A stretch of DNA of 64,000 nucleotides from a virus (taxonomy: Duplodnaviria > Heunggongvirae > Uroviricota > Caudoviricetes), in the IMG/VR virus record IMGVR_UViG_3300028854_000008, positions 63,374-127,373 of that record; one strand, 5' to 3'. Positions 949-63,437 of this stretch are shown here, one piece after another (the stretch's first letter is position 1; every line of letters starts with the position of its first letter). Under the pieces are notes generated by a model. That model saw only the letters and a program-made list of their open reading frames with translations. It had not been told where the DNA came from and searched no databases. Made by a program: the position numbers and the translations under genes.

Positions 949-1054
949 AAAAGAATAGAGATTTGCAGCACGCCGTAAATGTCTTATGACCTACCTCCAA
1001 TTTGTTATAGACAACGATTCGTGTTGCAAATAAAAGATATTGGTATAATGAGTA

Positions 1055-1125
1055 GTGCTTGTAGCTCAGTGGTAGAGCAGCCCCATTAAGAGGGCTGGTC
1101 GTTGGTTCGATTCCAACCAAGTATC
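1055..1125 (+). tRNA. tRNA with 8-nt anticodon loop CATTAAGA (contains TAA / TTA); class-I body; Leu(TAA)-like or ochre-suppressor-like
   Basis: Acceptor GTGCTTG/CAAGTAT, D-stem GCTC/GAGC, T-arm GTTGG-TTCGATT-CCAAC; anticodon stem AGCCC/GGGCT perfect only if loop has 8 nt. Confidence 0.55.
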
Positions 1126-1407
1126 AAAGTTATACTAGGCGCAGATAGACCATAATTGGTTCGCGGCCATGTTGGGAACGTCTCGTGAAATCCATCGCGC
1201 CCGCGATCTGAAGTAAAGTTTGTGTTAGTTGCTGTATTATTAGCCGAAGGAGCAAGAGCACCAGATGGAAAACTGGAGATTTGGCATTACGCCAACCAAT
1301 TGCGTAATGTGTCTGTGATCTAGCTAGGCGAGATGGGATTATCACTATTGGTAGATAACTCCACTGACTAACACAATTAGATATTAAAAAAAGTAGTGTC
1401 GCTGTAA

Positions 1408-3291: not shown

Positions 3292-3436
3292 CAGAAAATC
3301 ATAAGAAATAAAATTAAGTTCATTCAGTAATTCATTTATCATAGTAGCGAAGTAACGCATGAGTAAAATCGGAAAAGGTTGTTAGCCAATCCATGATAAA
3401 ATTCTAGATGGAATTACTGAATGTTAGTTTAAATGT

Positions 3437-3513
3437 TGGCTTGTAGCATAATTGGCAATGTGTGACCCTGTTAAGGTCAAAGATGATGGGTTCGAGTCCC
3501 TCTGAGCCAGCCA
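3437..3513 (+). tRNA. tRNA-Asn (GTT), CCA encoded, imperfect T-stem
   Basis: Acceptor TGGCTTG/TGAGCCA, D GCAT/ATGT, anticodon stem TGACC/GGTCA loop CTGTTAA, T-loop TTCGAGT. Confidence 0.7.
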
Positions 3514-6087: not shown

Positions 6088-6176
6088 GTGCTAGAGGCAA
6101 CTATCGGTTTGTTGCGCCAGATTGTGACCCTGGACTCGAAAGAGTATTACGGATTCGACTTCCGCCTAGCACCCCA
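6088..6176 (+). tRNA. tRNA with class-II body (long variable arm) and anticodon GTG (His), discriminator C, CCA encoded
   Basis: Acceptor GTGCTAG/CTAGCAC, D GCAA/TTGC 11-nt loop, anticodon stem CCAG(A)/(C)CTGG loop TTGTGAC, variable arm ACTC-GAAA-GAGT, T CGGA-TTCGACT-TCCG. Confidence 0.55.
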
Positions 6177-6200: not shown

Positions 6201-6288
6201 CGGAATGGCGGCAGGCCTGGTTTGCCTCCACGTTTGGGGCGTGGCGTTCGTAAGAACATCGTAGGTTCAAATCCTATCATTCCGACCA
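6201..6288 (+). tRNA. tRNA with class-II body (long variable arm) and anticodon TGG (Pro), CCA encoded
   Basis: Acceptor CGGAATG/CATTCCG, D GGC/GCC, anticodon stem CCACG/CGTGG perfect loop TTTGGGG, variable arm GTTC-GTAA-GAAC, T GTAGG-TTCAAAT-CCTAT. Confidence 0.55.
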
Positions 6289-7117: not shown

Positions 7118-7191
7118 GGAGTATTAGATTAACAGTGGATCGTATCCCTTTCAAGGATAAGGAGTGGGGGCAGCACCCACATACTCTACCA
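7118..7191 (+). tRNA. tRNA-Glu (TTC) with non-canonical T-loop GGCAGCA, CCA encoded
   Basis: Acceptor GGAGTAT/ATACTCT, anticodon stem TATCC/GGATA loop CTTTCAA, T GTGGG/CCCAC. Confidence 0.6.
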
Positions 7192-7731: not shown

Positions 7732-8232
7732 AGAAATTGTAAATCTCTTTCAACAAGTATTGAATGTTCAATTTGTGCTAGGAAATTTTATAAATTTGAG
7801 TCTAAAGGTAGAAAATATTGTAGTCTTAAATGTTGTGGAATTGCAAAGAAAAATAAATTCACTGCTGATTTTTCTCTGAATGGAAAGGGAAATCATAAAA
7901 GAGTGTTAATACATGAGCGTGGTTATAAATGCGAACGATGTAAAAATAGTGAATGGATGGGAATAGAAATTAATTTGCAATTAGAACATAAGGATGGAAA
8001 TCATTTTAATAATGAAAAAACAAATTTAGAGCTTTTATGCCTCAATTGCCATAGTCAAACATTAACATTTAATCGTAAGAAAACAGCAAAACTTATTTCT
8101 GACGATGAATTTTTAAAAGTATTAAATTCATCTAAAAATATTCGTCAATGTTTATTAAAATTAGGTTTGCAGCAAGGTAGCACAAATTATGATAGAGCCA
8201 AAAGATTATTAAGAAGAAATATGCAGCCGTAG
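7732..8232 (+). CDS. HNH homing endonuclease, no canonical start codon upstream of GTG 7903 (non-canonical start or disrupted gene)
   Basis: In-frame zinc-finger N-terminus CSICARKFYKFESKGRKYCSLKCC plus HNH core LEHKDGNHFNN..NLELLCLNCH; frame opens after TAA 7729-7731; stop overlaps tRNA 8223. Confidence 0.55.
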   Translation, partial: RNCKSLSTSIECSICARKFYKFESKGRKYCSLKCCGIAKKNKFTADFSLNGKGNHKRVLIHERGYKCERCKNSEWMGIEINLQLEHKDGNHFNNEKTNLELLCLNCHSQTLTFNRKKTAKLISDDEFLKVLNSSKNIRQCLLKLGLQQGSTNYDRAKRLLRRNMQP

Positions 8233-8309
8233 CCTAGTGGATTCAGGCACCAGTCTACGAAACTGGAGAGGAAACTCTAACGCAAGTTCGAATCTTGTCG
8301 GCTGCACCA
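8223..8309 (+). tRNA. tRNA-Arg (ACG) with long variable arm (class-II-like body), CCA encoded
   Basis: All stems perfect: GCAGCCG/CGGCTGC, GCCT/AGGC, CCAGT/ACTGG loop CTACGAA, variable arm AGAG-GAAA-CTCT, T GCAAG-TTCGAAT-CTTGT. Confidence 0.7.
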
Positions 8310-19792: not shown

Positions 19793-19870
19793 AGCTGAAT
19801 AGCGCAATTGGCAGGAGGCAACAGACTCAAAATCTGTACAGTGTGGGTTCGAGTCCCACTTCAGCTACCA
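19793..19870 (+). tRNA. tRNA-Leu (CAA) with class-I body (short variable loop), CCA encoded
   Basis: Acceptor AGCTGAA/TTCAGCT, anticodon stem ACAGA/TCTGT loop CTCAAAA, T GTGGG-TTCGAGT-CCCAC, 5-nt variable loop. Confidence 0.65.
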
Positions 19871-19890
19871 AAAGTTTAAATGTAAAATGT

Positions 19891-19968
19891 GCCGTTGTAG
19901 ACCAATTGGAAGGAGTCACTTGACTTAGAATCAAGACAGTATGGGTTCGAATCCCTTGGACGGCACCA
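19891..19968 (+). tRNA. tRNA-Leu (TAG) with class-I body, CCA encoded
   Basis: Acceptor GCCGTTG/GGACGGC, anticodon stem CTTGA/TCAAG loop CTTAGAA, T-loop TTCGAAT, 5-nt variable loop. Confidence 0.6.
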
Positions 19969-19982
19969 AAAGTTTTAAATGT

Positions 19983-20076
19983 ATGAGTGAAGGGCAATCC
20001 GGTTTGGCTCAGCAGTCTCCAAAACTGCCGTCTCTGAGAAGAGCAAATGTAGGTTCAAATCCTACCACTCATGCCA
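19983..20076 (+). tRNA. tRNA with class-II body (20-nt variable arm) and anticodon CCA (Trp), CCA encoded
   Basis: Acceptor ATGAGTG/CACTCAT, D GGGC/GCTC, anticodon stem GCAGT/ACTGC perfect loop CTCCAAA, T GTAGG-TTCAAAT-CCTAC. Confidence 0.6.
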
Positions 20077-21754: not shown

Positions 21755-21846
21755 GTGCTGATACGGAAGTGGCTTAACCGGGCGGTCTGCAAAATCGCTA
21801 TAATCATTAATTTGATTCGTGGGTTCGAATCCCACTCAGCACTCCA
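21755..21846 (+). tRNA. tRNA with class-II body (20-nt variable arm AATCA-TTAATTT-TGATT) and anticodon GCA (Cys), CCA encoded
   Basis: Acceptor GTGCTGA/TCAGCAC, D CGG/CCG, anticodon stem GCGGT/ATCGC loop CTGCAAA, T GTGGG-TTCGAAT-CCCAC. Confidence 0.6.
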
Positions 21847-25527: not shown

Positions 25528-25562
25528 TATATTTTAAGTTATAATATATTTAGGTGAATAAT

Positions 25563-26645
25563 ATGAATGAAACTACTTGCTCTCTCGAAAATTACCTTAT
25601 TCTTCCTGATAATACAATGGATGAGAGAATCGCCAATGCTAAAAAACAGCTTGGCGATTCTCTCATTATTTTGGGTCATCACTATCAAAGGGATGAAGTC
25701 ATAAGATTTGCTGATGCAATTGGAGATAGCTACAAACTATCTAAAATTGCTGCCGAAACAAACGCAAAATATATTGTATTTTGCGGCGTTCATTTTATGG
25801 CAGAAAGTGCTGATATTTTAAGTAAACCTGAGCAGATAGTAATTTTGCCTGATTTAAATGCTGGTTGTTCCATGGCTGATATGGCGGATATTTCTCAAGT
25901 TGAACATTGCTGGGAAGTTCTTGAACAAATGGGAATAGCAAATCATATAATGCCTATTACATATATGAACAGTTCTGCGGCAATTAAAGCATTCTGCGGA
26001 GAGCATGAAGGATTGGTTTGTACTTCTTCCAATGCTGATAAAGCATTTGCATATGCTTTTGCACATGATAAAAAAATTCTGTTTATTCCTGATCAACATC
26101 TTGGAAGAAATACTGGATCAAAAATGGGAATTTCTTTGAATGAAATGACTATTTGGGACCCTTGGACAATTCAATATGGCAAGAATTTTCTATTCAAAAA
26201 AATTATTTTGTGGAAAGGCCATTGTTCAGTTCATCAGAGATTTCTTCCTTCTCACGTTGAAACAATTCGTGAGAAGTATCCCAACATGAAAATCATTGTT
26301 CATCCTGAATGTAGAATAGAAGTTTGCGAGAAAGCTGACGATATTGGCTCCACTGAAAAATTAATTTCTTTGATTGAATCTGCTCCTGATGGATCATCTT
26401 TTGCAATTGGAACTGAGATACATCTGGTAAATAGGTTAGCTAAAAAATTTCCAAATAAACATATTATTACGTTGGATGACTCTGGTTGTGGATGCCTTTG
26501 CACAACAATGTACAGAATCACTCCTCAGCATTTATGCTGGGTATTGGAAAATCTTGTTGATGGAAAAGTTGTCAATCATATCAAAGTTAAAGACAGCGTT
26601 AAACATTGGGCAAACATTGCTCTAAATAGAATGTTGGAGGTTTAA
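25563..26645 (+). CDS. nadA: quinolinate synthase A
   Basis: Conserved NadA blocks LGHHYQRDEV, IVFCGVHFMAE, LNAGCSMADMA, HPEC, C-terminal Cys triad; full length. Confidence 0.85.
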   Translation: MNETTCSLENYLILPDNTMDERIANAKKQLGDSLIILGHHYQRDEVIRFADAIGDSYKLSKIAAETNAKYIVFCGVHFMAESADILSKPEQIVILPDLNAGCSMADMADISQVEHCWEVLEQMGIANHIMPITYMNSSAAIKAFCGEHEGLVCTSSNADKAFAYAFAHDKKILFIPDQHLGRNTGSKMGISLNEMTIWDPWTIQYGKNFLFKKIILWKGHCSVHQRFLPSHVETIREKYPNMKIIVHPECRIEVCEKADDIGSTEKLISLIESAPDGSSFAIGTEIHLVNRLAKKFPNKHIITLDDSGCGCLCTTMYRITPQHLCWVLENLVDGKVVNHIKVKDSVKHWANIALNRMLEV

Positions 26646-40211: not shown

Positions 40212-41177
40212 ATGGCACACACTCGAAAATTACTTTTGATCCAAGGAGAATCAGGATCTGGAAAATCAACCTTTGCTAAAAAATATGTCGAGGATCATCC
40301 CAATTATATTAGAATAAATCGTGATGATTTACGCATCGAATTGGCTGATGAACCAAATGCCCCAAAAGGCGGAAAATTTGAACGCTTTGTTTCTTTGGTT
40401 GAAAAAAGCAGAGTTGATAAAGCTTTAAAGGAAAATAAATCAGTAATATTAGATAATACTCATTTAAATTCAAACACTGTCGATGGATGGCGTAATTTCG
40501 CTCGTCATAAAGCAGAATTTGATATTTATCGAATGCAAACTCCAATGGAAGAGTGTATTTTGCGTGATTCAAAAAGAATTGGCAAATCACATGTGGGAAC
40601 GGCTGTAATTCATCGTCAATTTCTTATGTCTGGTAGATTGCCCATTGATCTTTCAAAGAAAATAGTGTTGTCTGATGTGGATGGAACTTTGATGGATTGC
40701 CATGGAATCCGCAGCCCATATGATGAAAGCAAAGTGTTGTTAGATAAACCTTTTCAAAATATCATCAATGAAGTTAATAAATATCATGATGCTGGAAATA
40801 CTGTTATTATTGTTTCTGGTCGGCATAGCACTTGCGGAGATGATACCATCACTTCACTTACTAAACATGGTGTAAAATTTGATTTTATTTTTATGCGCCA
40901 CATGTGGGATAATAATCACGATTATATCGTGAAACAACAAATTTTGGACCAATTACTTAATGTTGTCCCAAAAGAGCAAATTATTAAAATATGGGATGAC
41001 CGTCCACAAGTTGTAAAACAAGTGTGGCTCAAAAATAATTTACCAATTCAACCAGTTTTTAAAAATCAATTAATTCCTATCAATGAATGGACTACTGTTC
41101 ATGATAAGAATTGCAAATTCATTGCAACCAATAGATTTGGTCGATGCCCTGATTGTGAAGCATTGGAGGATTTTTAA
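40212..41177 (+). CDS. pnk: polynucleotide 5'-kinase / 3'-phosphatase (T4 Pnk-like)
   Basis: N-terminal P-loop GESGSGKST with RINRDDLR, C-terminal HAD phosphatase motif LSDVDGTLMD and VSGR. Confidence 0.8.
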   Translation: MAHTRKLLLIQGESGSGKSTFAKKYVEDHPNYIRINRDDLRIELADEPNAPKGGKFERFVSLVEKSRVDKALKENKSVILDNTHLNSNTVDGWRNFARHKAEFDIYRMQTPMEECILRDSKRIGKSHVGTAVIHRQFLMSGRLPIDLSKKIVLSDVDGTLMDCHGIRSPYDESKVLLDKPFQNIINEVNKYHDAGNTVIIVSGRHSTCGDDTITSLTKHGVKFDFIFMRHMWDNNHDYIVKQQILDQLLNVVPKEQIIKIWDDRPQVVKQVWLKNNLPIQPVFKNQLIPINEWTTVHDKNCKFIATNRFGRCPDCEALEDF

Positions 41178-41754: not shown

Positions 41755-42855
41755 ATGGCTTTGTGGCGAACTTTTGCTTGTAAAATTCAATTGCTTCCAC
41801 ATCCAAACGCAGATAGAATGGAAATTGCTCGTTGCAATTTCAATCAACTTGTGGTTGCTAAAGGAAATTATCAAGACGGTGATGTTATTGTCTTCGCACC
41901 AGAACGAGCAATTTTGCCTGATTCTTTGAAAGGCGAATATGTAAATTCTGAAACTGGAATCAGTTATCTTACTGGATCAGAGAAAAATAGAGTCAAAGCT
42001 ATCAAACTGAGAGGAGAACCATCAGACGGAATTTCCCTTCCTATTGAATGGGTATTGGAGCAAGTTCCTGAATGGAATTCTGTCAAAGATATTCCTTTGG
42101 ATATTGACATTTCAGAAAAACTTGGTATTTCAAAGTATGAACCTCCAATTCCTTATAATATGAGCGGAATTGTAAAATCTGTCGATACTTTAAATTTTGC
42201 ACCGAAAGTCGCTCATCACGATGTTGAACAATTTCGTTTGTTCGCTGATGAATTTGATAAAAATGAAGCTGTAATTTGCAGCGAAAAGTTGCACGGAACG
42301 CAAATCAATGTCTTTTTCTCTAAAACTGGAGAAATTGGAGTGTCTAGCAAAGGATTCAATTCCAGAGATTTGATCATTGAACAGGATGCAAAGAATCTCT
42401 ACTGGCAAGCACTGGAAAATTCTGGTCTAATTAATTTTGTTAAATGCGAAATTCTTGAGTCAAATGCTCCAGAACTATACAAATCAGATGTTCAATTGGT
42501 TGGAGAAGTAATTCCTTGCCAAAAGAATTTTACATATGGTCAAACCAAACCAATTCTGAAGCTATTTCGTTTTATTGTAAATGGCAAGGAATATTCAGTT
42601 CTTGATCTTAACAGAATTTATGGAAAACAGTTCTTGAAAGATCATTGGGTGCCAATTCTTTATCACGGAAAATTTGATCCTGAAATATTTGCAAAACTAT
42701 CTTCTGGAAATGAAACTGTCTCTGGAAAAGGTTTGCACATCAAAGAAGGCATTGTTATTGCTCCAGAAATTCCGCGAGTAGCGCGAAGAGGATTTCTCCT
42801 TCTTTTAAAATGGCTAAATAAGAATTATAAACCAACAGATGAGGATTTTTCTTAA
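41755..42855 (+). CDS. RNA ligase, Rnl2-like (KxHGT family) with N-terminal extension
   Basis: Motif I EKLHGTQ (T4 Rnl2 EKIHGTN), motif III QLVGEVIP, motif IV EGIVIAPE, basic motif V. Confidence 0.65.
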   Translation: MALWRTFACKIQLLPHPNADRMEIARCNFNQLVVAKGNYQDGDVIVFAPERAILPDSLKGEYVNSETGISYLTGSEKNRVKAIKLRGEPSDGISLPIEWVLEQVPEWNSVKDIPLDIDISEKLGISKYEPPIPYNMSGIVKSVDTLNFAPKVAHHDVEQFRLFADEFDKNEAVICSEKLHGTQINVFFSKTGEIGVSSKGFNSRDLIIEQDAKNLYWQALENSGLINFVKCEILESNAPELYKSDVQLVGEVIPCQKNFTYGQTKPILKLFRFIVNGKEYSVLDLNRIYGKQFLKDHWVPILYHGKFDPEIFAKLSSGNETVSGKGLHIKEGIVIAPEIPRVARRGFLLLLKWLNKNYKPTDEDFS

Positions 42856-43827: not shown

Positions 43828-44925
43828 ATGATTGTTTTAAATAAACTGCTGAATGTCGAGACTTTGGAGCAATTAATTGCTGATGGATATATTTCTCGAA
43901 AATTTCACTCCAAATTTCCTTTGGCAATTTTGAACTATTCTCATAAAGCCAACTTTGATCCAAACTTGATATGGGGCAATGAGTTAAATTTCTGCCGAGG
44001 ATTGATTTACAATACTGAAACTTTAGAAATTGTTAGTCGTCCATTTTCCAAATTCTGGAACATTAATGATACTCGCCATCCTGAAACTATGGAAGAGAAT
44101 CTTCCCAACGATATTCCTCTAATCACATCAAAGATGGATGGGAGCATGGGAGTATTTTATCACTGGGATGGTGTAAATTATATTGCAACTCGTGGAAGTT
44201 TTGAGTCTGACCAATCAAATTGGGCCAATGAATGGCTTCATAAAAATTATCCTAATTTGATTCTTCCAAAAAATTATACTCTGCTATCAGAAATCCTTTT
44301 CAAATCTAATAGGATAGTCGTAGAATATGATTTTGAAGGACTTGTAATTTTGGGAGCAGTTCATAAAGAAACTGGCCAGGAATTATCACGTCAAAATCTT
44401 GTAGATTATTGCGATATTACTAATCTAAACATCGTTCAAGACCACACCAAGTCTTTATCTGAGTGTGTTTCTGAAGACTTACCCAATTTTGAGGGATATG
44501 TCTTAACTTATTCAAATGGGTTAAAAGTTAAAATCAAAGAATTGACTTATTGCACCCTCCATAAGATTATTACAGGTCTCAATCCTAAAGCAATTTGGGA
44601 ATTGAAGCGTGATGGAAAAAATGAAACTATTGATAGTTGGTTGAATGATAAAATAATGCCGATTGAATTCAAGAATTGGCTAAACAAGTGGGATGATCAA
44701 TTATCCAATGATTTCTACAAAATATTGATGACGGCTGAATCTATTTTTAATAAGCAACCAAAAACTAATTCTCGTAAGGAAATTGCAACATATTTCTTAC
44801 AAGGAGAAAACAAAGAGTATTCATCTATTTTATTCGGATTATTGGATGGCAAAGATGTTTCTCAAACAATTTGGAGAATGATTGAGCCAAAATTCAATGA
44901 CGTATTTAGAGAAGATGGAGAGTAA
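43828..44925 (+). CDS. rnlA: RNA ligase 1 (T4 RnlA-like tRNA repair ligase)
   Basis: Collinear blocks with T4 Rnl1: NFCRGLIYN, RPFSKFWNIND, motif I LITSKMDGSMGVFY, SEILFKSNRIVVEY, FEGYVLTYSNGLKVKIKELTY. Confidence 0.8.
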   Translation: MIVLNKLLNVETLEQLIADGYISRKFHSKFPLAILNYSHKANFDPNLIWGNELNFCRGLIYNTETLEIVSRPFSKFWNINDTRHPETMEENLPNDIPLITSKMDGSMGVFYHWDGVNYIATRGSFESDQSNWANEWLHKNYPNLILPKNYTLLSEILFKSNRIVVEYDFEGLVILGAVHKETGQELSRQNLVDYCDITNLNIVQDHTKSLSECVSEDLPNFEGYVLTYSNGLKVKIKELTYCTLHKIITGLNPKAIWELKRDGKNETIDSWLNDKIMPIEFKNWLNKWDDQLSNDFYKILMTAESIFNKQPKTNSRKEIATYFLQGENKEYSSILFGLLDGKDVSQTIWRMIEPKFNDVFREDGE

Positions 44926-53261: not shown

Positions 53262-53316
53262 TTCAAAACAAAGCACTTATTTTCTTATTGACAAATCACC
53301 TAAAGTTTAGTATACT
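53262..53316 (+). promoter_or_regulatory. conserved element 5' half fused to different -10 region (TTGACA-N17-TATACT) driving CCA enzyme gene
   Basis: AAAGCACTTATTTTCTTATTGACAAATCACCTAAAGTTTAGTATACT. Confidence 0.55.
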
Positions 53317-53335
53317 TATTTTAGTGGAGAAAACT

Positions 53336-54661
53336 ATGACCAAGATGAATCAAAATGCGCTGGCAGTAATGGAGACTCTTGAAAATGCAGGGTACGATGC
53401 CTTTTTATGCGGGGGCGCGGTCAGAGATTTGCTTCTTGGCTTGACTCCACACGATTGGGATGTAACTACTTCTGCCCCTGCTGAAGTCGTGGATTCTCTC
53501 TTTCCCAATACAAAGATGGTGGGAGAAAATTTTGGCGTTTCTCTTGTTGAATACAATGGAGAAACATTTGAAGTTGCGCGATTCCGTCGTGATGGAGATT
53601 ATAGCGATAATCGCCGCCCAGATTTTGTGGACTTCACTTTGTCTGCTGAAGAAGATGTTGCTAGAAGAGATTTTACCATGAATGCTTTGCTCATGGATCG
53701 AAACGGAAATGTTTACGATTTTGTTGGTGGACAGACTGATTTGCAGAATGGTTTGCTCCGGGCTGTTGGAAATCCTGAAACTCGTTTCACTGAAGATGCA
53801 TTGCGTTTACTTCGAGCTGTCCGTTTCGCAGCGCGATTTAATCTTCGATTTGATCGGGAAACTCATGAAGCAATAGAAAAGAGGGCTTTTTCTGTTGAAA
53901 CTCTTCCGCCTGATCGTGTTAGCGGAGAACTTGTCAAGATGCTGACTGGTGGCAATGTCAATGTTGCTTTCAAGCTTATGGACAACACTGGATTGCTTCA
54001 GCATGTTTTGCCTGAAGTCAATGCAATGCGTGGTGTGGATCAAAATAGCAAATTTCATCCAGAAGGAGATGTTTTTCAGCATACTCTGCTCATGCTGTCT
54101 AAGCTTCCTGCGAATTGCAGCGTCACTCTTGCCTTGTCTGTCCTTCTTCATGATGTGGCAAAACCAACAACTGCTGTTCGTAACGTAAAGACTGGTGAAA
54201 ATCAGTTTTTTGGCCACGAAACAGTCGGTGCTGAAATGGCTGCAAAGATGCTTCGCAATCTTCGATTTTCAAATGAAGTTGTAGATGCTGTTAGCAGCCT
54301 TGTTTCTCAGCACATGAAGTTTTTCAACGTAACGAAGATGAATGATTCCAAGTTGAAGAGATTCGTTCGTCAGGAAAATTTCAGCGAATTGCTTGAACTG
54401 AATCGTCTTGATAGTCTTTGCAGTAATGGTGATCTCACTGATTTCAATTTTGCTGTTGATTTTCTTGCAAGTGTCACTGAAGAGTCTTTGAATCCTGTTC
54501 GTCTGCTTACTGGAAACGATTTGCAGGCAATGGGGTTGAAGCCTGGCCCGATGTTTAAGACTTTGCTTACTGCACTCGAAAATGCGCAGCTTGACGGGCG
54601 TGTAACAACTCGTGACGAAGCTGTATTTTTCGTTGAATCTTTGACTGGCGGAGACAGGTAA
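53336..54661 (+). CDS. cca: CCA-adding tRNA nucleotidyltransferase with HD domain
   Basis: Pol-beta NTase motif CGGAVRDLLLG..DWD, RRD, HD-domain LLHDVAKP; GC-richer than flanks. Confidence 0.85.
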   Translation: MTKMNQNALAVMETLENAGYDAFLCGGAVRDLLLGLTPHDWDVTTSAPAEVVDSLFPNTKMVGENFGVSLVEYNGETFEVARFRRDGDYSDNRRPDFVDFTLSAEEDVARRDFTMNALLMDRNGNVYDFVGGQTDLQNGLLRAVGNPETRFTEDALRLLRAVRFAARFNLRFDRETHEAIEKRAFSVETLPPDRVSGELVKMLTGGNVNVAFKLMDNTGLLQHVLPEVNAMRGVDQNSKFHPEGDVFQHTLLMLSKLPANCSVTLALSVLLHDVAKPTTAVRNVKTGENQFFGHETVGAEMAAKMLRNLRFSNEVVDAVSSLVSQHMKFFNVTKMNDSKLKRFVRQENFSELLELNRLDSLCSNGDLTDFNFAVDFLASVTEESLNPVRLLTGNDLQAMGLKPGPMFKTLLTALENAQLDGRVTTRDEAVFFVESLTGGDR

Positions 54662-56975: not shown

Positions 56976-57604
56976 GTAACTTTGATAAACTGAAGAAACA
57001 ATTAGATAAAGCAGAGGAAAATGCTTCTATTAAACGTGAAGAATTTTATGGTTTAATCACAGAAGTATTGTCTGTATTTAATTTGAATAATGATCATTAC
57101 GACGATGTATGGTCAAATGAAACTCATGTAATTGTGAACTATAGCTGGAGGGCTGCTGGATGTAACTGCTCAGATTCTATTACTCTCCCAAAGTCAATTT
57201 TTGATGCTGCTGATCCTGTTGCCGTCGCAAAAATTTATAAAAATGATCTTGATAATAGCAAGAAAAAGTCTGAACGTTCAATAAAATTAGAAGAATTTAA
57301 TGCTTTAAAGAAAGAACTTGGTGTAAAAATAATGAAAGCAACTCATCCAATACAACCATTAGTTAGCGACAAAGTTGGAACAACCAGATTTAAAGAAAAT
57401 GCTATTGTTAGCTATCTTATTGACATTGCAACACAAAAAGGCATAGCAGACATGAATTCTCTGGCTATTATGAATTTCTCAAATGAAGATCGTGAGCAAT
57501 TTGCTCAACTGATTGGATATTCATTGGACGGATTTGGTGAATTATCATATGTAAGTGATGAGACATATGATTTGGCTGCAAAGCAAAAAGTTTTTAAGGA
57601 ATAA
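56972..57604 (+). CDS. hypothetical protein
   Basis: ATGA overlap with upstream gene. Confidence 0.5.
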   Translation: MSNFDKLKKQLDKAEENASIKREEFYGLITEVLSVFNLNNDHYDDVWSNETHVIVNYSWRAAGCNCSDSITLPKSIFDAADPVAVAKIYKNDLDNSKKKSERSIKLEEFNALKKELGVKIMKATHPIQPLVSDKVGTTRFKENAIVSYLIDIATQKGIADMNSLAIMNFSNEDREQFAQLIGYSLDGFGELSYVSDETYDLAAKQKVFKE

Positions 57605-57639
57605 ATACAAGTGTTAAATAACGCTCGTGAAAGGACAGT

Positions 57640-57700
57640 ATAAAATCAACGGACAACACACCGGTTCAACTCCGGTCAGGTCCACCAAATTTATGATTCA
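57640..57700 (+). ncRNA. tRNA-like 3' half (T-arm ACCGG-TTCAACT-CCGGT + acceptor strand CAGGTCC + A + CCA); possible permuted tRNA/tmRNA-like piece
   Basis: Canonical T-arm and encoded CCA; complementary acceptor strand GGGCCTG lies 28 nt downstream, not upstream. Confidence 0.3.
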
Positions 57701-58035
57701 ATGTTTTATTTGGGCCTGTCATGGTATCGATTGACGTGTGGTTGGACTACTGACGAGCCGACTGGTGTGGCCATCGTAAATGGACACATAAACAATAATT
57801 GCTACCTCTGGTATCAATGGCAGTGCAAAGATTTTCACGTATTCTGTGAATCTCCGCAACACTGAGCTAGTAAACGCCTAATAAGCTTTACTCCGAGGAG
57901 TTGTTCCGTCCTTGTAAAAGAAACGGAACTATAAAATTTCCTTTAACAACTCAGTAGATCACTGCATATAGGACAATTTTATTTTGCATCTAGAAAATAA
58001 TGTAGATATTTCATTCTTATAGATAAGTTATCATC

Positions 58036-63361: not shown

Positions 63362-63437
63362 ATATTCAAAACAAAGCACTTATTTTCTTATTGACTTTAC
63401 TCTTAACCTTTGATACAATATATTTATTGGAGAGTAT
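63362..63437 (+). promoter_or_regulatory. conserved promoter element variant (as 38345) driving 63438 gene
   Basis: AAACAAAGCACTTATTTTCTTATTGACTTTACTCTTAACCTTTGATACAAT. Confidence 0.5.

Follow-up and report, generated by a model that had tools for sequence, protein, structure and literature searches.

Classic frameshift-suppressor transfer RNAs (tRNAs) such as sufD, SufA6, SufB2 and SufJ have an insertion in or 3′ of the anticodon and retain their original identity, and alanine tRNAs with a leucine-box anticodon occur in Ashbya gossypii and, as tRNAAla(CAG), in Pachysolen. The mitochondrial tRNAAla(UAG) of Ashbya gossypii carries G3:U70 and reads CUU/CUA as alanine, and its InsU31 variant, which has an anticodon loop of 8 nucleotides (nt), keeps 42% alanylation efficiency (PMC3874161). 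Yeast mitochondrial tRNAThr1(UAG), with the 8-nt loop UUUUAGGU, reads CUN as ordinary triplets, and several natural tRNAs with 8-nt loops decode quadruplets (PMC3113583). Defences that target tRNAs, and the tRNAs with which phages counter them, are well documented (PMC10264068, PMC11464382). Here, we describe a tRNA gene at positions 1055–1125 of a 64,000-nt stretch of DNA from a Caudoviricetes phage (IMG/VR record IMGVR_UViG_3300028854_000008, positions 63,374–127,373), the whole of which we call the window. It is a true tRNA gene of class I, structurally intact, whose transcript probably folds with an 8-nt anticodon loop and whose only strong identity mark is G3.U70; to judge from its sequence it is not a leucine tRNA by any criterion that we tested. 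With a probability of about one half we consider it a recently acquired passenger or decaying tRNA, neither leucine tRNA nor suppressor, which could be at most a weak alanine-accepting reader of UUR codons (UUA/UUG) after addition of CCA.

Like tRNAThr1, the phage tRNA belongs to class I and combines a leucine-box anticodon with a predicted 8-nt loop of 3+3+2 layout (CAU-UAA-GA versus UUU-UAG-GU), a triplet set between a U and a purine, and a discriminator other than A73 (here C73, a non-leucine identity). The yeast tRNA, however, has been kept in 10 species, has a dedicated ThrRS, which charges it and recognises the enlarged loop, and serves a code in which CUN has been reassigned, whereas for the phage tRNA no orthologue and no dedicated synthetase were seen, and UUR still means leucine. 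With the Ashbya tRNAAla(UAG) it shares the leucine-box anticodon, G3:U70 and a non-A73 discriminator, and the 8-nt-loop variant of the Ashbya tRNA is a good AlaRS substrate. In contrast to Ashbya, where the tRNA replaces the leucine decoder in an adapted genome, the phage keeps a canonical Leu(UAA) tRNA and uses TTA and TTG heavily as leucine codons, and the minor alanine elements are absent. The suppressors sufD, SufA6, SufB2 and SufJ have the eight-membered anticodon loop in common with the one predicted here, but in the phage tRNA the additional base precedes U33 and the identity elements form a scrambled set. Nuclease-evading phage tRNAs (PMC10264068; T5 tRNALys against PARIS, PMC11464382) are similar in their altered loop (A32, G37 and size in our case) and in the tRNA-repair enzymes of the phage; they are, however, chargeable functional replacements with 7-nt loops, whereas this tRNA lacks the cognate identity and is not conserved. 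Closest in body (79–84% identical) are two tRNAs of large lytic phages, the tRNA-Met of Kuttervirus Cba120, which also has a GCCCC...GGG anticodon stem with a 28:42 non-pair, and the tRNA-Ile of Bacillus phage Izhevsk, which likewise does not encode CCA. Both differ from it in their loops (CUCAUAA and UUGAUAA), their normal 7-nt registers and their 5-nt variable loop.

Results

ARAGORN calls a 71-nt tRNA, Leu(taa), on the + strand at 1055–1125, and its intron and non-standard modes return the identical call. In Rfam (cmscan) the gene scores 53.1 bits against RF00005 (gathering score 29; E = 1.4e-8 over the window), so that the tRNA proposed at this position by a first-pass annotation, made from sequence letters and translated reading frames, is borne out by both tools. 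The cloverleaf has U8, A14, G18, G19, A21, G53, T54, T55, C56, A58 and C61. Its acceptor stem (1055–1061/1118–1124) is made of G1.U72, U2-A71, G3.U70, C4-G69, U5-A68, U6-A67 and G7-C66, and is followed by the discriminator C73 at 1125; CCA is not encoded, and AAAG comes next. Both programs place the D arm, GCUC-AGUGGUA-GAGC, at 1064–1078, with A14, G15, G18, G19, U20 and A21 present, and the 4-nt variable loop GGUC and T arm GUUGG-UUCGAUU-CCAAC at 1097–1117.

The anticodon arm (1079–1096) can be drawn in two registers. ARAGORN and Rfam both force a 7-nt loop, AUUAAGA (1085–1091), leaving A26 unpaired with a stem of 1080–1084/1092–1096 that contains G27.U43 and a C28xC42 non-pair (marked "v" by cmscan and "c c" in the ARAGORN drawing). 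Slipped to 1079–1083/1092–1096, the stem AGCCC/GGGCU is fully paired (A26-U43, G27-C42, C28-G41, C29-G40 and C30-G39) and encloses the 8-nt loop CAUUAAGA at 1084–1091. The first-pass annotation was thus right that the perfect stem of 5 base pairs (bp) leaves an 8-nt loop and that a 7-nt loop costs a C-C mismatch, to which the G27.U43 pair has to be added. In ViennaRNA the cloverleaf with the 8-nt loop reaches −22.9 kcal/mol and the 7-nt versions −15.9 to −17.8 kcal/mol, a preference of 5–7 kcal/mol for the slipped register in nearest-neighbour energies, which leave tertiary contacts and base modifications outside the model. Pair probabilities in the slipped register exceed 0.99, and the unconstrained minimum free energy structure adopts it as well. 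Among 274 distinct 7-nt-loop tRNAs called across all loci that we fetched, a fully paired 5′-slipped register is present in one, namely this tRNA, and a fully paired 3′-slipped register in none (0/274), which argues for a feature beyond chance rather than a generic accident of tRNA stems. A covariance-model fold with a standard 7-nt loop and leucine identity elements, together with a lack of suppression, had been named as the outcome that would speak against a suppressor or unusual tRNA; the model does accommodate a 7-nt loop, at the price of a broken pair, and the leucine elements are absent. A CAU anticodon was also considered and dropped, as no stem supports such a register.

Which bases would such a loop present to the ribosome? 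In C-A-U-U-A-A-G-A, UAA is the triplet that stands between a U (5′) and a purine (3′), and by this U33/R37 rule the most likely anticodon is UAA at 1087–1089 (U33-like 1086, G37-like 1090, A38-like 1091); a UAA anticodon reads UUA/UUG. The leucine-box triplet with its U33 is flanked by A32 and G37, yet the resident Leu(UAA) tRNA has A37. U1086 is followed by UAA-G-A, five bases as is standard, which puts the extra one (C1084 or A1085) 5′ of U33, as in yeast mitochondrial tRNAThr1, and nothing points to a four-base or stop-reading anticodon. The first-pass annotation had noted TTA in the loop and proposed a suppressor of stop codons or of frameshifts. UUA is present, at 1086–1088, but it is preceded by A1085 rather than by the U that normally stands before an anticodon, so that it does not directly follow U33. 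Nor does the additional nucleotide lie within or 3′ of the anticodon, after U33, where a four-base anticodon would have it, and the link between an expanded loop and frameshift suppression finds no support on this point.

We compared the tRNA with the identity rules compiled for bacteria and E. coli. Bacterial LeuRS recognises A73, A15-U48 and A20a, and a change of A73 to C73 abolishes leucylation of a minimal E. coli tRNALeu (PMC9976931). The phage tRNA has C73, in contrast to A73 in 4/4 resident leucine tRNAs, and instead of a class-II architecture it has a 4-nt variable loop, G15-C48 and a 7-nt D loop without 20a. The description of the gene as an unusual leucine tRNA therefore survives in its adjective only, given the short variable loop, C73, G15-C48 and G37. 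For bacterial AlaRS, G3.U70 is the major element and A73, G2-C71, G4-C69 and G20 are minor ones (PMC9976931). G3.U70 is present, as G1057 with U1122, but the minor elements are replaced by C73, U2-A71, C4-G69 and U20. Among 300 tRNA calls, G3.U70 is carried by every tRNA-Ala and by the tRNA at 1055–1125; the other carriers are a few odd-loop tRNAs from the DNA-pattern searches (e.g. contigs L069 and L072) and one tRNA-His, which is a numbering artefact. Within the phage it is the sole non-alanine tRNA with this pair. If the tRNA is charged at all, alanine would be the most plausible amino acid. HisRS uses G-1, C73 and the anticodon GUG (PMC9976931); C73 is there, but position −1 (1054) is an A and the anticodon is not GUG. 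Descent from tRNA-His was dropped as an explanation, because G-1 is absent and histidine tRNAs are not similar to this one.

The genome seems to be read in the standard code. All TTA/TTG codons of the phage NadA (14/14) align to columns in which leucine is predominant or the main alternative to methionine (119 homologues), which indicates that UUR is still leucine. TTA (29 per 1000 codons) and TTG (20 per 1000; 49 together) are the two commonest leucine codons, TTA coming first, and TAA ends 60 of the 85 open reading frames (ORFs; 71%). NadA, ClpX, the CCA-adding enzyme, the RNA ligases and the IMPDH have normal lengths in the standard code, and a long in-frame extension past a stop, wherever compared with the ORF coordinates, was simply the following gene, which has that frame in common. 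Codon use, stops and conserved protein lengths give no sign of recoding, in a survey that did not include a dedicated scan for +1 frameshift sites or for gene pairs in need of such a shift. A genome that reassigns UUR would have lost its canonical leucine decoder, but here UUR is leucine and Leu(UAA) is present. Nor do we find what an ochre-suppressor genome should show, that is in-frame UAA in conserved genes or avoidance of UAA, and the suppressor reading of the first-pass annotation is not supported at this level either. In a phage so rich in TTA and so often terminated by TAA, an efficient alanine-inserting UUR reader or ochre suppressor would be mainly self-damaging.

The tRNA bodies nearest to that at 1055–1125 are Ile(GAU) (79–80% identity), Met(CAU) (79%) and Asn (78%), all from unrelated phages, and none of the phage's own tRNAs is among the 25 nearest. 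Homing endonucleases adjoin two of the three nearest-body tRNAs that we inspected, Cba120 tRNA-Met and Izhevsk tRNA-Ile. Searches of 50,697 phage records (INPHARED) with blastn and megablast returned generic Ile, Met, Asn and Thr tRNAs only, and no relative of the region as a whole. Exact and degenerate DNA patterns found no orthologue in viral, metagenome and genome contig collections; they gave a mixture of odd, short-armed tRNAs whose loops, 5 to 8 nt long, contain UUAAG, and four 16-mer matches that were discarded as not being tRNAs. In IMG/VR, homologues of a neighbouring protein of about 172 amino acids have no tRNAs nearby, and relatives of the SprT-like protein are absent. A relative phage was found via neighbouring proteins, at 58–66% protein identity and with the same gene and tRNA order (Gly, Lys, 173-amino-acid gene, Asp, Phe, Gln, SprT-like, cREC, R2K, HNH). 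Its four contigs contain no counterpart of the tRNA or of window positions 1126–1395, and the equivalent interval has no canonical tRNA by ARAGORN or Rfam. As the flanking RNA elements are kept in the relative, the gene appears to be lineage-specific. This restriction to one lineage, the lack of CCA, D and T loops of consensus "bacterial" type and a guanine-cytosine (GC) content of 45–52% in the tRNA and its flank (52% for the tRNA against 33% for the genome) suggest that the tRNA was probably gained by recent horizontal transfer in this lineage.

Odd short-armed tRNAs recur in public metagenome-assembled genomes (MAGs) and viral contigs (L047, L070, L036, L044 and others). Some of them are Lys-like with the 6-nt loop CUUUAA, and two of these Lys-like genes are in Acidobacteriaceae MAGs. 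A Peribacteria MAG (L072) has a perfect tRNA-Ala body (GGGGCCA...UGGCUCC-A-CCA) with the loop UUAAGAC and anticodon AAG, and a Filomicrobium MAG (L069) has the 8-nt loop AUUAAGCU plus G3.U70. Kinship between these odd-loop tRNAs and the phage tRNA is not demonstrable. An AUUAAGA arm in contig L026 was dropped as evidence for a family, its acceptor stem being poor, its G53-C61 pair broken and its loop match within chance.

A sigma-70-like promoter, TTGACA-N17-TATAGT (+ strand, 920–948; 11/12 matches), lies 107 nt upstream of the tRNA, so that the consensus promoter reported at 100 nt upstream is confirmed as a motif. Near-consensus TTGACA-N17-TATAxT sites number 19 on the + strand and 4 on the − strand of the window, a bias that suggests transcription of the tRNA-rich region by host sigma70. 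A second, weak candidate is the extended -10-like TGGTATAAT at 1042–1049 (+ strand), which would start transcription at about tRNA position +1. It may be fortuitous, as such motifs occur 9 times on the + strand versus about 5 expected by chance in a composition-based estimate.

The tRNA heads a non-coding region of about 0.8 kb (45% GC, fold z-score −3.3). Its unassigned parts (1126–1395 and 1500–1850) contain a perfect 18-bp inverted repeat (1531–1548/1623–1640), and a 13-bp hairpin lies at 1484–1510; a 168-amino-acid ORF called on the − strand in this stretch looks spurious. The downstream 725 nt have no Rfam match down to E = 10 and no match in the phage collection, and the lack of an Rfam match argues against a T-box, a group I intron, an RNase P RNA or a fragment of a ribosomal RNA operon. 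At 1396–1500 we find a mini tRNA-like element with a 7-bp acceptor (AGUAUAA/UUAUACU), a D arm with GG and the T arm GCGAG-UUCGACU-CUCGC. A 3-bp hairpin replaces its anticodon arm, CCA is absent, and a GUGUC/GACAC helix encloses it. The element is 84% identical in the relative phage (L081, 8601–8706), with compensatory changes in both helices, and is probably a functional small RNA. Another element, at 9–79 (70 nt), is 96% identical in the relative (L081, 7600–7670) between diverged flanks. It starts with CGCGGGG, has the loop CUCAUAA, ends with CCUCCGCA and, with its C1xA72 mismatch, looks like an initiator tRNA; even at E = 10 it goes unscored by the tRNA covariance model.

The phage that carries these elements is large, has 33% GC in the window and is coded on a single strand. 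ARAGORN finds 23 tRNAs and a permuted, two-piece transfer-messenger RNA at 57591–57972 (Rfam tmRNA_permuted, 73.1 bits at 57623–57828). A 111-kb metagenome contig (L001) reaches 7.9 kb further upstream than the window, and the upstream stretch adds Ala(AGC), Ala(UGC), an 86-nt Leu(UAA), Lys(UUU), Lys(CUU) and Gly(UCC). This Leu(UAA), at L001 5611–5696, is a canonical class-II tRNA with the loop CUUAAAA. N73-CCA is encoded in all 28 of the other phage tRNAs called by ARAGORN and is absent, among the 29 in total, only from the one at 1055–1125; the discriminators of the other 28 obey bacterial rules. Several residents have swapped architectures: Leu(CAA) and Leu(UAG) have no long variable arm, and Pro(UGG), Arg(ACG), Trp, Cys, Ala(UGC) and Gly(UCC) have a long extra arm (19793–19968, 6201–6288, 8223–8309, 19983–20076 and 21755–21846, and L001 5041–5133 and 7550–7634). 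Such architectures, highly unusual for bacterial-type tRNAs, may relate to the evasion of tRNA-targeting defences. Three more tRNAs escape the default ARAGORN call: a Glu(UUC) with an odd T loop at 7118–7188 (Rfam only, 44.6 bits), an 89-nt His(GUG) at 6088–6176 (relaxed ARAGORN threshold only) and a probable non-canonical tRNA(CAU) with CCA at 468–540 (GGCACAG...CUCAUAA...GUGGG-AUUAUUC-CCCAC-CUGUGCC-A-CCA), which both ARAGORN and Rfam miss. An exact 64-nt repeat (L001 7049–7112 and window 3426–3489) duplicates the 5′ part and leader of tRNA-Asn about 4.3 kb upstream of the gene.

Among the encoded proteins are a CCA-adding enzyme, a polynucleotide kinase-phosphatase (Pnkp), two RNA ligases, ClpX, NadA, ThyX and a GMP-reductase/IMPDH-like enzyme. 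The CCA-adding enzyme (53288–54661, + strand) has a PolyA_pol head domain (7.9e-33), an RNA-binding domain, tRNA_NucTran2_2 and HD. With Pnkp and the two ligases, one of them T4 Rnl1-like (40212–41177, 41755–42855 and 43828–44925), it makes up a complete kit for tRNA repair and maturation. The window sequence is present in several soil or peat metagenome assemblies (e.g. ENA ERZ27248620 and Logan SRR8554894 among the samples with this contig), in copies that are all 100% identical (10/10). NadA (25554–26645) is 70–73% identical to that of Acidobacteriota, e.g. Terracidiphilus, which suggests a recently captured host gene and makes an acidobacterium the probable host; a NAMPT gene lies upstream in L001. 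An acidobacterial host is expected to be GC-rich and to use UUA rarely, and a GC-rich host would account for a near-complete tRNA set in an AT-rich phage.

Discussion

What could a tRNA with contradictory parts do for the phage? We infer its expression, its fold in the cell, its charging and its lack of function along the following lines. The tRNA would be foreign to the phage's own set, gained recently in a tRNA region rich in homing-endonuclease genes. It would be transcribed from the promoter at 920–948 and then trimmed at both its 5′ and 3′ ends, with CCA added by the phage (or host) CCA-adding enzyme, a step that the genomic context suggests. The transcript would fold in the slipped register with the loop C-A-U-(UAA)-G-A, and once mature the tRNA would offer UUA/UUG codons an ordinary triplet anticodon, UAA. 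Rejection by LeuRS is to be expected, given C73 and the lack of leucine hinge elements, and G3.U70 alone would make it at most a poor AlaRS substrate. Because a Leu-to-Ala mis-decoder or an ochre suppressor would harm the phage itself, a neutral passenger or decaying gene with little or no decoding role seems the better fit.

Several observations weigh against a recently gained passenger. A strong promoter stands upstream, the core shows no decay, with every stem pairing once the register is slipped and 52% GC in a genome of 33%, and it is a little surprising to find a gene of no use in a streamlined array, unless it arrived very recently. The gene could also have been ancestral and then lost in the relative, in which case its absence there would not reflect a gain. 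The metagenome copies, all being identical, carry no population signal on constraint, and the identity rules, which are those of bacteria and E. coli (PMC9976931), may not match the LeuRS and AlaRS of the presumed acidobacterial host.

The strongest of the alternatives is that the tRNA does not decode at all and is a mimic, either a decoy or inhibitor of a host defence nuclease aimed at the rare tRNA-Leu(UAA) of a GC-rich host or a punctuation mark by which RNase P and RNase Z release the downstream RNA. A tRNA without CCA that LeuRS would not charge, and that nonetheless bears a Leu(UAA) loop sequence, fits this role, as does its position at the head of a structured non-coding region with a conserved mini tRNA-like element. 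The phage also invests heavily in tRNA conflict, with Pnkp, two RNA ligases, the CCA-adding enzyme and about 30 tRNAs, in line with the documented contest between tRNA-targeting defences and phage counter-tRNAs (PMC10264068, PMC11464382). The relative, however, keeps the downstream element and not the tRNA. Nucleases turn over, so that stoichiometric decoys would be inefficient, phages are known to counter with functional replacement tRNAs rather than with decoys, and neither a nuclease nor its target was identified here. We therefore regard a mimic as unlikely.

Less likely again is a functional switch of identity, in which the tRNA is charged with alanine via G3.U70 and reads UUA/UUG despite its 8-nt loop, the exchange of leucine for alanine being tolerated or deliberate. 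G3.U70 is otherwise confined to tRNA-Ala among the normally built tRNAs of our 300 calls, and there are precedents both for the identity, in the Ashbya tRNA(UAG) and its InsU31 variant (PMC3874161), and for the loop, as yeast mitochondrial tRNAThr1 reads triplets with a 3+3+2 loop of 8 nt (PMC3113583). Against these stand the 14/14 NadA sites at which UUR is leucine, the cost to the phage itself of mis-reading 49 codons in every 1000, the competing canonical Leu(UAA) tRNA and the missing bacterial alanine elements A73, G2-C71, G4-C69 and G20. That the gene is a full phage counterpart of the yeast-mitochondrial tRNA(UAG) identity switches, matured with CCA, charged with alanine via G3.U70 and acting as a UUA/UUG mis-decoder or an intermediate of reassignment, or else an uncleavable mimic of tRNA-Leu(UAA) against an anticodon nuclease, appears improbable to us.

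We are very doubtful that the tRNA works as a leucine tRNA in the 7-nt fold with its mismatches tolerated, as a nuclease-resistant spare UUR decoder beside the short-armed Leu(CAA) and Leu(UAG). ARAGORN and Rfam do fit a 7-nt loop with anticodon UAA, and these two resident tRNAs similarly have no long variable arm. E. coli LeuRS requires neither the anticodon nor the long arm, and a floppy anticodon stem does not keep human mitochondrial tRNALeu(UUR) from working (PMC9976931). But C73 replaces A73, G15-C48 replaces A15-U48, A20a is absent, CCA is missing and G3.U70 is present; moreover, the 7-nt fold is worse by 5–7 kcal/mol, and the body is unrelated to the short leucine tRNAs of the phage.

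The two remaining proposals can be set aside as extremely unlikely. An ochre suppressor could use UUA at loop positions 3–5, the place of the anticodon if counted from the 5′ side, to pair with UAA (and UAG by wobble), and the non-leucine identity and the tRNA's own promoter would suit it, but A instead of the near-universal U33 precedes UUA, three bases are left on the 3′ side, TAA ends 60/85 ORFs, conserved proteins have normal lengths and extensions past stops are the next genes; we also know of no UAA reassignment in phages. A +1-frameshifting decoder of the quadruplets UUAA or CUUA with a four-base anticodon has in its favour the predicted 8-nt loop and the ability of natural and selected tRNAs with such loops to shift frame, yet the extra base sits 5′ of U33 with the standard five bases after it, and UUA-A is so common in an AT-rich genome that an efficient shifter would be toxic.

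Even as a recently gained passenger, the tRNA would illustrate how an anticodon label such as "tRNA-Leu(taa)" can hide contradictory identity elements, and how a 7-nt loop imposed by software can mask a slipped stem. An enlarged loop, a sense anticodon and a foreign identity are the ingredients behind codon reassignment in yeast mitochondria, and to our knowledge no other viral tRNA is known to unite these three. Should the phage tRNA prove to be expressed and charged, it would be the first such viral example and a tractable system for how such tRNAs arise and are tolerated. Its setting, amid unorthodox tRNAs and a full tRNA-repair kit, bears on the arms race between phages and tRNA-targeting defences.

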